This document shows, one piece after another, positions 37,185 to 52,744 of a stretch of 64,000 bases of DNA (position 1 is the first letter of the stretch; every line of letters begins with the position of its first letter). The DNA is from a virus. The translations under genes were made by a program, and so were the position numbers. The notes below the pieces were generated by a model. The model was not told the DNA's origin. It did not search any database and saw only the letters and a program-made list of their open reading frames with translations. Where the stretch lies: IMG/VR virus record IMGVR_UViG_3300046170_000301, one strand, 5' to 3'.

Positions 37185-37267
37185 TTTCGATGTATGAACA
37201 TGATACCATAGATAGGAACCATGATCAAGAGAAATGCCAATAAACCAACGAATATTGGCATTTCCAT
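37175..37267 (-). CDS. 30 aa single-TM peptide
   Basis: MEMPIFVGLLAFLLIMVPIYGIMFIHRNGA*; stop falls inside the tRNA-Pro 5' end. Confidence 0.4.
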   Translation of the reverse strand: MEMPIFVGLLAFLLIMVPIYGIMFIHRNGA

Positions 37268-37290
37268 TAAATTGGCAATTAAATTAGTAA

Positions 37291-37542
37291 TCATCTCACC
37301 TCAAAATCTAATCTACGAACCTTTCTTTTACGACGGTTCTCCTGAAACTCCATATCTTGTTTATTCAAGAGTTGGGGGGTCGTCTTCTGTCGGGGGTTTG
37401 ATATAATTTCCACTAAGGATAAGTTCTTGGCGCTTATGTTTGTACCACGGATGCTCGTAAGGTTGTCGCATTGGCAACTTCTCATCTGTGATGGGTGCTC
37501 CTCTAATTGCTTCCCGCAATTCTTGCATCTGATTATTAACAT
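37291..37542 (-). CDS. Zn-ribbon hypothetical protein, cyanophage-conserved
   Basis: CxxC...CxC motif; C-terminal RRKRKVRRLDFEVR. Confidence 0.65.
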   Translation of the reverse strand: MLIIRCKNCGKQLEEHPSQMRSCQCDNLTSIRGTNISAKNLSLVEIISNPRQKTTPQLLNKQDMEFQENRRKRKVRRLDFEVR

Positions 37543-49798: not shown

Positions 49799-50020
49799 CT
49801 ATTTAGTATTATTAACATTTATCTCACGTAAATCAGTTACCCAGGCACGAAACATTTCTCCCTTTTCTGTAACGGCAATTACATAGTTAACACCAGGACG
49901 AATAATCTTTCCCTTTTGTTTTGTGTTAACATCTAAAACAACATCGCCTTCTTGAAATATTTCTTTTCTAATATATCTTTCTTTAGTTGCTTCCTTTCTG
50001 AATTGCCTGAAATCTTTCAT
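49799..50020 (-). CDS. Hypothetical SH3-like protein
   Basis: [13 protein letters not shown]...[21 protein letters not shown]. Confidence 0.6.
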
Positions 50021-50052: not shown

Positions 50053-50139
50053 CGGAGAGTAGGCGAATCGAACGCCTAAGGGCTTTAACACCTCGACGCT
50101 TTTCAAGAGCGTTTCCGTCGCCAATCGGATTGTCCCTCT
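50053..50139 (-). tRNA. tRNA-Ser(UGA) with a replaced 5' half
   Basis: ACGCT-CTTGAAA-AGCGT arm, long variable arm, TAGGC-GTTCGATTC-GCCTA; acceptor AGAGGGA/ACTCTCC mismatched at both ends. Confidence 0.75.
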
Positions 50140-50526
50140 TTATAATTTATCTCTATATGGTTCATATTTTTTACCAAGAGATAGAGTAGATTTAGATTGA
50201 ACTTCTGTAGTTGGAATAAAATATATATCTCCTAACTCAGTTACTACAAGTAAATAATCACAGGAATTATTATCAAATTTGTGAATTGTATTGCCAGAAC
50301 GATTAGCTCTAATAGACCTAAGTTGGACACAATAGTTAGAATTTTGCAAGGTCCTTGTAGATTTTACTTGAACTTTTTTTAAATTGCCATCAACTTCACA
50401 AACTAAATCATAACTTTGATTATCAACCAAAGGAACTGAAACATTATAACCTTTTTTAGTTAGAAAAGCAATAGCGTAAGATAATCCTACAGTTCCTTGA
50501 GATACTGGAGTGAGATTGGCGAACAT
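50140..50526 (-). CDS. Free-standing PD-(D/E)XK homing endonuclease (I-Ssp6803I-like, group-I-intron-associated family)
   Basis: GYNVSVPLVDNQSYDLV...KVQVKS...CDYLLV...IYFIP pattern; TATAAATA at 50551-50558. Confidence 0.8.
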   Translation of the reverse strand: MFANLTPVSQGTVGLSYAIAFLTKKGYNVSVPLVDNQSYDLVCEVDGNLKKVQVKSTRTLQNSNYCVQLRSIRANRSGNTIHKFDNNSCDYLLVVTELGDIYFIPTTEVQSKSTLSLGKKYEPYRDKL

Positions 50527-50557
50527 ATAATACCTGTATATTATACAGTTTATTTAT

Positions 50558-50589
50558 ACAGGTTCCGTCGCCAATCGGCTTGACTCTCC
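50558..50589 (-). pseudogene. Orphan 5' half of tRNA-Ser
   Basis: GGAGAGTCAAGCCGATTGGCGACGGAACCTGT; GGAGAGT is the perfect partner of ACTCTCC at 50054-50060. Confidence 0.8.
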
Positions 50590-50615: not shown

Positions 50616-50936
50616 TTATTTATTTTTTATGTCTTTAACTTGTTTAGAACTCCAAACAGCAAAAGCAATGACTGCAAAATAAAATAAATAATCGTCAATC
50701 ATTACTAGAAAAAAAAATAAAGAACCACCATAACGAATGTATTCTGGAACTGGAAGTTTTTTAAAAAACCAACGAATTTGTTTTTCAAATACAAAATACA
50801 ATAGTGCTAATGCTGTTACTACAAATTCACTATAAGGAACAACAAAATACAATGAGATAATTACAAAGATTGTGAAGTAATGTCTCTCTGGTATTTTTGA
50901 AATTAAAGAGACATACTTCTTAATTAATTTTTTCAA
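50616..50936 (-). CDS. Hypothetical membrane protein
   Basis: Several hydrophobic helices. Confidence 0.6.
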   Translation of the reverse strand: MKKLIKKYVSLISKIPERHYFTIFVIISLYFVVPYSEFVVTALALLYFVFEKQIRWFFKKLPVPEYIRYGGSLFFFLVMIDDYLFYFAVIAFAVWSSKQVKDIKNK

Positions 50937-51347
50937 TTAACGGTCATCCTTCGCACGATTCTCGGAATAGTATACATCAAAATCACCACCAGGATAGCGC
51001 TTCATAAGTTTTTTAACATTACCTTCAATGACTTCATCAAAAGAAACATTAAGAGCAACACACGCTTGAGCAACATACCACATCACATCACCAAGTTCAA
51101 TAATAAGGTGTTCCCGATTATCATCATTCCAAGGCTTACCCTGAAAAATCATTTTCTTGATAATCTCAAGAAACTCTCCACCTTCAGCATTGATACCAAC
51201 ACCAGCAGTAAGAAGACGTTCAATGTTAGCACCTTTACCGTCAAGTTCTACCATCCTATCAGACAGTGCTACGAAATCTTTAGAGGCATCACTAGTCACA
51301 GCATCAACGAACTCTTGATACCGTTCAAAATCTACATGTTCTGTCAT
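50937..51347 (-). CDS. mazG: MazG-like nucleotide pyrophosphohydrolase
   Basis: AEGGEFLEIIKK...ELGDVMWY...KLMKRYPGG. Confidence 0.92.
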   Translation of the reverse strand: MTEHVDFERYQEFVDAVTSDASKDFVALSDRMVELDGKGANIERLLTAGVGINAEGGEFLEIIKKMIFQGKPWNDDNREHLIIELGDVMWYVAQACVALNVSFDEVIEGNVKKLMKRYPGGDFDVYYSENRAKDDR

Positions 51348-51349
51348 AG

Positions 51350-52744
51350 TTAGATAATAAATTGGGAAAATTTGTTTAATCGTTTTTGCCTTTCGGAAAC
51401 TTCCTCCAGGACTTCAAAGGTTTCTTCTGGTGCTTCTGTAACCAATTCAGCACCTTCCGAATCCTCTACATTATACAGCTTCATCTTTGCCCTGTCAATG
51501 CCCACAGTAAATCTCTTGTGGAAGATGGTATCGTTATATCGGTTCTTGAGCTGTTTGACCATGATACGACCAGACTGTTCAAGTTCCTCAGTAGCGATAA
51601 GAGCAAACATAAAGTCAGCAGTAGCGGGAAGACCAAAAGACTCAGAAGTGTCGGTAAGGTCAACGTCACTATTGCCAAAACCACTCCTAGTTGTTTGAGT
51701 TGCTGAAACAATAGGAATGTCGTTTTCAACAGCAAGACCTCTAAGTTCTTCAGCAATTGCTTTAACATAGCTGTAGGAGTTTACAACGTGACCTTTGTAT
51801 CTAGAAGAAGCACAGATGTTTAGATAATCAATAAAGATAATATCTGGTCTAAAATCTTTCTTCAAACTAAGGTCACTCAGCAATGCTTTAAAATGTTCAG
51901 CATGTGCTGCTGCCGTTGGATACTCTTTGATGATAAGTTTACCTTGAGTTTTCCTACCAATCTCTTTAACTCTTGAAGTAAAGATTGTTTCTGGAATTGA
52001 ATTAATATCTTTAATATTAACATTAAGAAGATTAGCATCAATCCTTTCAGCAATCTTTTCTTCCGACATCTCAAGTGTAATGTAAAGAACATTTTTTCCT
52101 TGAGATATACAAAAAGCAGCACAATGACACATGAAAAGAGATTTGCCAACACCAGTTCCAGCAAGAGCAACATTAAGAGTTTTGTTTGGCAAACCACCTT
52201 TAGTAATCAAATTAAACTTTTCCAAATCAAATGGAATCTTTGATTCTTCTTTGTGGTAATACTCGTAACGTTGTTCTACATTATCAACATAATCGTGACC
52301 TATGTATTCATCGAACGATACTGCCAGGGCCTCTTGTAATATCGAGGGGATAGCACCTCTCGATATTTTTTCATCGCCTTCTCCATCTGCGATTTTGATA
52401 GATTGGAGTAGGGCATTATAGATTGCTCTGTCTTTACACCACTTCTCTGTGCTGTTAACAAGCCAATCTTTGTCAATCCACTCTTCAGTGAACTCTTGGA
52501 TTTTCTTAGCGCCTTCTTTATATACGTCTTCAGTAAGGTCATTTCTTTCTTGTAAAGATAAAATCAAAACTTCCTTTGTTGGAAGTTTATCGTATTTTGT
52601 AGAGAAGTCCTGTATTTCTTCGTACAGGACTCGTTCGGTATAATCCTGAAAATATTCAGGTTTAAGAAAAGGAACTACCTTTCTATAATATTCCTCATTA
52701 CATAAAAGATTTCTAAGTATTGTTGTTTCAATCTTCTCCTTCAT
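51350..52744 (-). CDS. gp41: Replicative DNA helicase gp41
   Basis: [32 protein letters not shown] and KQLKNRY motifs. Confidence 0.95.

Follow-up and report, generated by a model that had tools for sequence, protein, structure and literature searches.

A free-standing relative of I-Ssp6803I that probably homes into cyanophage tRNA-Ser genes together with its own tRNA-Ser allele

A 64,000-nucleotide (nt) stretch of viral DNA (IMG/VR record IMGVR_UViG_3300046170_000301; hereafter the window), which is part of a T4-like cyanomyovirus genome with approximately 75% nucleotide identity in replication genes to Synechococcus phages Sf-FR1 and S-PM2, contains at positions 50053-50589 a nuclease gene between the 5' half of one transfer RNA (tRNA)-Ser(UGA) gene and a second tRNA-Ser(UGA)-like gene. 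The nuclease is probably a free-standing homing endonuclease that spreads by intronless homing and brings a linked tRNA-Ser gene with it, in which case the half-tRNA of the window is a scar. The original prediction, made from the letters of the DNA, had described an orphan tRNA-Ser 5' half at 50558-50589 that ends with the 5' strand of the anticodon stem, a late promoter inside an inverted repeat, a PD-(D/E)XK open reading frame (ORF) of 128 amino acids (aa), a second tRNA-Ser with a different anticodon stem immediately after the stop codon, a 3' acceptor strand better paired with the orphan half than with its own 5' strand, and no room for a ribozyme; all of these features are borne out by alignments and database searches, as detailed below.

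The features of the locus are all on the minus strand. The orphan half (32 nt; 50589..50558) comprises the acceptor 5' strand, the D arm and the anticodon-stem 5' strand, and it overlaps by one T with a T4-type late promoter box, TATAAATA (50558..50551). The inverted repeat is real and reaches 9 base pairs (bp), 50563..50555 with 50540..50532, within a leader hairpin region (50532..50563) whose native inner arm is at 50548..50542. The nuclease ORF (50526..50140) has its ATG 31 nt from the orphan half, and its stop codon is followed at a distance of 0 nt by the tRNA-Ser(UGA)-like gene (50139..50053), which matches the Rfam tRNA clan and occupies the position at which relatives have an intact tRNA. 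The anticodon of this adjacent copy is at 50105..50103, and its anticodon stem (50112..50108 with 50100..50096) is of the CGC-type, one of two allele classes described below. The D arms of the two tRNA sequences form an exact direct repeat of 16 nt (50113-50128 in the adjacent tRNA and 50563-50578 in the orphan half), which has exactly two matches within the window where none would be expected. The 3' acceptor strand pairs with the orphan half at 7 of 7 positions and with the adjacent 5' strand at 5 of 7. Neither a group I intron nor any other ribozyme was matched at the locus by Rfam models at E values up to 10, and the gaps of 31 nt and 0 nt leave no room for one. Two other kinds of mobile element were considered and rejected: a group I intron in a tRNA gene has no covariance-model match here, and the two flanks, each with its own copy of the D arm, cannot be the exons of a single gene; an integrase-type element with duplication of an attachment site is contradicted by the 128-aa nuclease being the sole ORF between the repeats and by the absence of any integrase family from its Pfam matches.

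The nuclease ORF matches Pfam family PF11645, the ssp6803i family (PMC3424549), with 80.1 bits (cut-off 26.1; E 2.1e-22) over profile positions 7-113 of 138. Its other Pfam match, DUF4365, is weak, and no GIY-YIG or HNH catalytic domain of the type found in the T4 seg and mob enzymes is among its Pfam matches; the nuclease would act like the seg and mob genes yet belongs to neither. Compared with I-Ssp6803I itself (PDB 2OST; E 1.5e-10), it has approximately 35% identity over 96 residues, and the SYDLV and KVQVKS blocks are identical. The residues of these blocks are also kept in 11 full-length relatives with 73-83% identity, and D40, Q53 and K55 are invariant in 12 relatives. The blocks that contain them (D...QxK) are presumably the catalytic ones, judging from the published structure of I-Ssp6803I. 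Because the pairwise ratio of nonsynonymous to synonymous substitution rates (dN/dS) of the nuclease gene is 0.03-0.16, a range indicative of purifying selection, the gene is predicted to encode a working protein and not to be in decay.

A search of IMG/VR and a metagenome collection with the nuclease protein found 19 other full-length loci (13 from IMG/VR and 6 from metagenomes). In all 19, the stop codon of the ORF is directly followed, at 0 nt, by G1 of an intact tRNA-Ser(UGA) that is called by ARAGORN, and upstream of the ORF are a TATAAATA-type box and a hairpin of 6 bp with a 7-nt loop. The late box lies at a constant distance before the ORF in most related loci, with one-base variants in loci L010/L013 and L154. 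To the left of the box, four contexts have been found, namely the end of a conserved small gene, a terminator (L004), another intergenic site (L153, with the empty counterpart L070) and the interior of a tRNA (the window), all of which join the cassette within approximately 17 nt upstream of the box, and the promoter box TATAAATA thus appears to be the left edge of the mobile cassette. The orphan half, an association with which the original prediction had expected of homologs, is present in none of the 19 other full-length loci. A pattern scan for a D arm with a late-promoter box at most 12 nt after it, a pattern that does match the window, found no second orphan half in the IMG/VR collection used, which lacks the window itself. 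The duplication is therefore peculiar to the window genome, and the orphan half is best read as the one-off scar of a single illegitimate left junction and not as a feature of the family. Nor does the cassette carry a replacement tRNA half, as had been supposed; instead, a whole tRNA gene travels in it.

The comparison with empty-site relatives that the original prediction had called for is provided by a near-isogenic pair of loci, L004 with the nuclease gene and L073 without it. Upstream, the two are 99% identical over 3 kilobases (kb), and the 150 nt next to the edge, which falls within a terminator loop, are 100% identical. Beyond this edge, L004 continues with promoter and nuclease gene, followed by a tRNA-Ser quite unlike that of L073; L073 continues with the rest of the terminator and a tRNA-Ser of the other allele class, the CTG-type. 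Downstream of the tRNA, identity is 77-92% for approximately 750 nt and then 99-100% for 2 kb. The pair thus shows a block in the place of the resident tRNA-Ser, together with a co-conversion tract; promoter, nuclease gene and tRNA thus move as one unit, and the pattern is the hallmark of a homing event with one-sided co-conversion. The clade of the cassette to which L004 belongs is located just downstream of psbA.

The two allele classes were defined from a pattern scan that found 120 cyanophage tRNA-Ser(UGA) loci, which together with earlier loci make 134 instances (loci L001-L138). The two main classes, CTG-type and CGC-type, differ solely in the anticodon stem, where two adjacent base pairs are each changed on both strands, so that the stem is preserved. 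When a haplotype is defined as the tRNA plus 450 nt upstream, there are 90 haplotypes of the two major alleles (52 CGC-type and 38 CTG-type), and the nuclease gene is present in 11 of the 52 CGC-type haplotypes versus none of the 38 CTG-type haplotypes (Fisher 0.002); if remnants of the 3' end of the ORF are counted as well, the numbers are 18 of 52 versus 0 of 38 (Fisher 2e-5). The gene is polymorphic for presence or absence at the tRNA-Ser locus (11 haplotypes with the gene, 7 with a remnant and 72 without), and empty sites occur in the same contexts as occupied ones, with short spacers. Each allele is found with several different acceptor stems, and the two occur in a shared genomic context; L025 differs from L031/L119 in the stem allele while the tRNAs and flanks are otherwise identical. 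Local conversion is favoured by this pattern over simple clonal descent. Two nuclease homologs of greater divergence, in L004 (83% identity) and L155 (48%), also precede tRNA-Ser genes with stems that are not CTG-type. Footprints of loss were also noted: the last 15 or so nucleotides of the ORF are kept before CGC-type tRNAs in L021, L041, L063, L064, L068, L071 and L091, and in L034 the nuclease gene is precisely deleted between 8-nt direct repeats. To judge from these remnants and from L034, the nuclease gene can be lost with the CGC-type tRNA left in place.

The orphan half of the window has the CTG-type stem. It aligns base for base with the tRNA-Ser genes of DSL-LC02 (the closest), S-PM2 and S-RIM32, matching intact cyanophage tRNA-Ser(UGA) from G1 through position 31 at the end of the anticodon-stem 5' strand and breaking off there, at the stem/loop boundary (position 31/32); one T-to-G change affects a D-stem position that is identical in 134 of 134 tRNA-Ser instances. 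In S-PM2 and S-RIM32, an intact tRNA-Ser(UGA) is at the corresponding place relative to gp41 and mazG, and the order of mazG, small ORF and tRNA-Ser is the same as in the window. Because of this alignment and this shared location, the orphan half appears to be the front part of the resident tRNA-Ser gene in its native position, and its end probably marks the position at which the enzyme cut.

The adjacent copy is itself irregular. Its acceptor stem has two mismatches, A1.C72 and A7.A66, and A1 departs from the G found at position 1 in all 134 instances. ARAGORN with default settings does not call this tRNA, which is called only with a lowered threshold, and does call the hypothetical product of the orphan 5' half and the adjacent 3' part; the Rfam tRNA score of the adjacent copy is 37 bits, below the gathering cut-off, versus 49.2 bits for an intact relative. 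On these grounds the adjacent copy may be decaying and of doubtful function. The opposition of A7 to A66 is suggestive of a crossover that joined a 5' strand from a donor to a 3' strand of the resident type. A variant in the T loop, supposedly confined to CTG-type genes, had been taken as a further sign of a chimeric tRNA and was refuted by L150, which is linked to the nuclease gene and of the CGC-type and has the same T arm, and the acceptor-stem mismatch is the sole remaining pointer to a crossover. If the two copies of the 16-nt repeat recombined, the nuclease gene would be lost and a fully paired CGC-type tRNA-Ser would result. The proposal that the element restores a cleavage-resistant copy of its target is thus upheld insofar as the cassette supplies its own tRNA allele with an altered stem, and is weakened by the two acceptor-stem mismatches of the copy in the window.

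The following sequence of events would account for these features. During co-infection, the enzyme would cut tRNA-Ser genes with the CTG-type stem, most likely in the symmetric anticodon arm, and repair from the donor would copy the nuclease gene plus the linked tRNA. The linked CGC-type stem, with two compensatory base-pair swaps that retain the fold of the tRNA and alter both half-sites in the DNA, would probably confer immunity. I-Ssp6803I assembles as a tetramer on a pseudo-palindromic site. Recognition of a long site of this kind by an oligomer (PMC3384342) fits a target that encodes a stem-loop. The resident gene of the window would have been a CTG-type tRNA-Ser downstream of mazG, as in S-PM2, broken at or 3' of position 31. 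On the right, recombination would have occurred within or beyond the tRNA, where there was homology. On the left, there would have been no homology beyond the 31-nt half, because the gene located upstream in the donor is elsewhere in the window genome (homolog at 37542..37291), and an illegitimate join to the cassette promoter through 1-2 nt of microhomology would have stranded the resident 5' half as an orphan.

Homologs of PF11645 were also sampled in nine further phages. The ORF ends 0 nt before tRNA-Pro in River4, 1 nt before tRNA-Tyr in Acinetobacter phage CP14 and in UPEC06, 14 nt before tRNA-Ser(GCU) in BCP12 and approximately 30 nt before tRNA-Cys in a 735-kb uncultured phage; in EC106 it directly follows tRNA-Ser(UGA), and in WPEC5 there is no tRNA nearby. 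The spacing of 0-30 nt before a tRNA gene thus recurs in Thalassavirus, Tsarbombavirus, Saclayvirus, Vequintavirinae and the 735-kb phage, and coupling to the 5' ends of tRNA genes looks like a family trait. River4 and Chester are sister phages in which the gene precedes different tRNAs. In Chester (a Vibrio phage; L140:1195-1680), the ORF extends into the start of a sequence resembling tRNA-Tyr. This sequence is rejected by ARAGORN, has acceptor pairing through only two G.U pairs and is very different from the intact tRNA-Tyr of River4; it may be another tRNA that was damaged or replaced by such a cassette. It is conceivable, though less likely than not, that the PF11645 nucleases of many unrelated phages are a guild of homing enzymes, each welded at 0-30 nt to the 5' end of one tRNA gene, which move whole tRNA genes between phages in cassettes of promoter, nuclease and tRNA, target the symmetric DNA that encodes the stem-loops of tRNA arms and gain immunity by compensatory swaps that keep the tRNA intact, the half-tRNA of the window perhaps being also co-opted.

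A second, unrelated gene, annotated as an HNH endonuclease, was observed directly upstream of tRNA-Ser(UGA) in L001:2147-2536 (DSL-LC02), L110 and L137; in DSL-LC02 it runs into the tRNA up to the anticodon. Because this gene also adjoins tRNA-Ser(UGA), and does so with both stem alleles, the 5' flank of tRNA-Ser(UGA) is a hot spot for two nuclease families.

Several observations weigh against the interpretation of the window as a homing cassette with a scar. The insertion event of the window is reconstructed from a single sequence, since no near-isogenic relative was found, and the window nuclease is distant from every sampled donor (synonymous divergence, dS, of approximately 0.9). An AlphaFold2 model of the monomer, built from a 12-sequence alignment, had a predicted local distance difference test (pLDDT) score of 46, too poor to be used. 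The anticodon arm is deduced as target from sequence comparison, and the actual target may be at another place within or close to the tRNA; the two acceptor mismatches of the adjacent tRNA fit poorly with a function of restoring the gene. The linkage between nuclease gene and allele may partly reflect shared ancestry: the occupied loci amount to only some 6-11 haplotypes, many of them were found through the nuclease itself, and the haplotypes are not phylogenetically independent. There is neither gene nor remnant in 34 of the 52 CGC-type haplotypes. Finally, the tRNA-Pro of Thalassavirus is identical with the nuclease beside it (River4) and without it (Chester, where a different ORF occupies the site, which is therefore not cleanly empty); not every member of the family, then, is accompanied by an altered tRNA allele.

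The single occurrence of the orphan half, the mere 1-2 nt of microhomology at the left junction and the heavy recombination of T4-type phages would also be expected if the tRNA had been partly duplicated by slippage, unequal crossing-over or illegitimate recombination without cleavage by the nuclease, whose gene would merely sit between the copies. This is unlikely, since the orphan half ends exactly at the boundary of anticodon stem and loop, the region cut by the type enzyme of the family, since the linked allele is that of the adjacent copy, whereas that of the orphan half never occurs beside the nuclease, and since the cassette has the same edge at the promoter in three other independent contexts. 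An artefact would require that the junction be a chimera, created during assembly or amplification, of phage strains with and without the nuclease gene. No close relative of the window was present in the phage, IMG/VR and metagenome collections searched, and the junction is unreplicated, as such a chimera would predict; the shared repeat of 16 nt, however, is below the usual assembly k-mers, the join of stem strand and promoter exists in neither parental form and must therefore be contained in reads, and the flanking synteny is normal, all of which makes a chimera highly improbable.

Two further explanations assign the sequences a function together with tRNA. Instead of homing, the PD-(D/E)XK protein could act alongside tRNAs in some phage function, such as processing or counter-defence, which would be the reason for their co-transcription. 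Its position at tRNA 5' ends in many unrelated phages would then reflect a functional coupling, and the strong purifying selection would agree with such a role. Its sporadic presence at one locus, with remnants and precise deletions, the co-conversion tract in the near-isogenic pair and the change of adjoining tRNA species between the sister phages River4 and Chester are not what this function predicts, and the only characterised member of the family is a DNA homing endonuclease (PMC3424549); a role of this kind is quite improbable. The full pairing of the 3' acceptor strand with the orphan half, as opposed to 5 of 7 with the adjacent 5' strand, and the ARAGORN call at default settings of only the orphan-plus-3' product would be explained by a functionally split tRNA, in which the orphan half and the downstream 3' part come together as RNA, by joining or by assembly, and the ORF is an unconventional intervening sequence. 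Such a tRNA is scarcely credible, because there is no match to any ribozyme or intron model, late transcripts, whose promoter is located after the orphan half, would not include it, none of the 19 relatives is so arranged (all have ordinary intact tRNAs), and the substitution in the orphan half is at an otherwise invariant D-stem position. Joining would, moreover, have to take place between D arm and anticodon stem, a location for which to our knowledge there is no bacterial or phage splicing system.

If the half-tRNA is the scar of a homing event, it may have acquired a part in expression of the nuclease. In T4, translation of homing endonuclease genes, segB among them, is restricted to late transcripts whose start lies within a hairpin sequestering the ribosome-binding site (PMC2988022), and the layout of the cassette, from late box through hairpin to ATG, is the same. 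In the window, the hairpin stretch 50540..50532 holds AGGT, 5 nt before the ATG, and the junction extends the pairing to 9 of 9 bp, between the orphan stem strand plus the start of the promoter and the AGGT-containing stretch. The D loop of the orphan half also has 8 nt of complementarity to codons 2-4 of the nuclease gene (window 50515-50575, minus strand). A read-through RNA (50575..50515) is predicted to fold at -18.8 kcal/mol (z -3.7), versus -3.5 for an RNA that starts inside the hairpin, and on this folding the scar may have been co-opted to silence early or read-through translation of the nuclease mRNA. The leader hairpin of the main clade (L006-L016, for example L007:228-254; 6-bp stem, 7-nt loop) agrees with the CTG-type anticodon arm at 13 of 21 positions, a likeness reached by 2% of shuffles. 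In the case of I-TevI, autorepression of the late promoter is exerted through an operator similar to the homing site of the enzyme (PMC2988022), and the likeness of the leader hairpin to the putative target arm recalls that mimicry. Both the folding and the likeness are suggestive only.

Upstream of the locus, on the same strand, are the genes of gp41 helicase (52744..51350) and MazG (51347..50937) and a membrane-like ORF of 106 aa (50936..50616), which is separated from the orphan half by a weak hairpin and a T-run that is also present in S-PM2. In most relatives a small gene stands before the nuclease/tRNA-Ser unit; its homolog in the window, at 37542..37291 (minus strand), is an 83-aa ORF ending in RKVRRLDFEVR. 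It is followed (37185-37290) by approximately 100 nt and then tRNA-Pro, and tRNA-Ser is absent there, the window genome having its tRNA-Ser at the S-PM2-type site and not beside this ORF. Downstream of the tRNA is a 73-aa ORF (49799-50020) whose homolog in Sf-FR1 (SfFR1_145, L139:1770-1991) is annotated as the NrdB small subunit. Since the product is 73 aa long and Pfam gives no match, the NrdB label is probably an annotation slip in that record.

The mechanism proposed here is a known one, namely intronless homing as in the T4 seg genes (PMC3984707, PMC2988022). The original prediction of a minimal mobile element holds to the extent that the allele linkage and the L004/L073 pair indicate a mobile unit that enters tRNA-Ser genes with its own altered-stem allele and without splicing; it is not a new class of element, since T4 SegB is a precedent (PMC2330249; PMC3984707). 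SegB is likewise a free-standing gene in the tRNA region of a T4-like phage, where it recognises a conserved tRNA stem-loop at the DNA level and drives the inheritance of flanking tRNA genes along with itself (PMC2330249), and it likewise has a late promoter with an RNA structure that sequesters the ribosome-binding site (PMC2988022). SegB cleavage followed by microhomology recombination duplicates segments of the tRNA region (PMC13096335). The window enzyme differs from SegB in having a PD-(D/E)XK instead of a GIY-YIG fold, in a target that is putatively the anticodon arm instead of the T arm, and in being fused end-to-start with one particular tRNA gene, as SegB is not; an allele-specific immune tRNA is not described for SegB in the literature searched. 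With I-Ssp6803I it shares the family and the motif blocks; I-Ssp6803I cleaves the anticodon region of a tRNA gene, and the window enzyme may do likewise. The gene of I-Ssp6803I, however, is part of a self-splicing group I intron inserted in the anticodon loop of tRNA-fMet in the chromosome of the cyanobacterium Synechocystis, whereas the window gene is intronless and stands in front of a phage tRNA-Ser. SegF, SegG and SegE, which act in intronless homing and marker exclusion in T4, would resemble it in cutting the allele that lacks the gene, in asymmetric co-conversion and in resistance by target polymorphism (PMC2988022, PMC3984707), but their targets are protein-coding, whereas with the present cassette the gene of a structured RNA is co-converted and the putative resistance consists of compensatory pairs. 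F-CphI of cyanophage S-PM2, as summarised in PMC3984707 from Zeng, Bonocora and Shub (2009), targets the insertion site of the psbA intron and cooperates with an ORF-less intron; by that description it is tied to the psbA intron site, unlike the window enzyme, which is coupled to tRNA-Ser and has no intron. The literature searched contains no description of free-standing phage genes of PF11645, of their end-to-start fusion with tRNA genes or of immunity by compensatory stem changes.

If this interpretation is true, the only characterised family of PD-(D/E)XK homing endonucleases extends from a cyanobacterial intron to free-standing phage genes, and PF11645 as a whole would be specialised on tRNA genes. 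It would offer a concrete reason why phage tRNA genes and their alleles turn over and spread horizontally, a turnover that is of current interest because phage tRNAs are now regarded as counter-defence cargo; SegB has been shown to amplify phage tRNAs (PMC13096335). The two natural anticodon-stem alleles would provide a ready test of immunity by compensatory mutation in the gene of a structured RNA.

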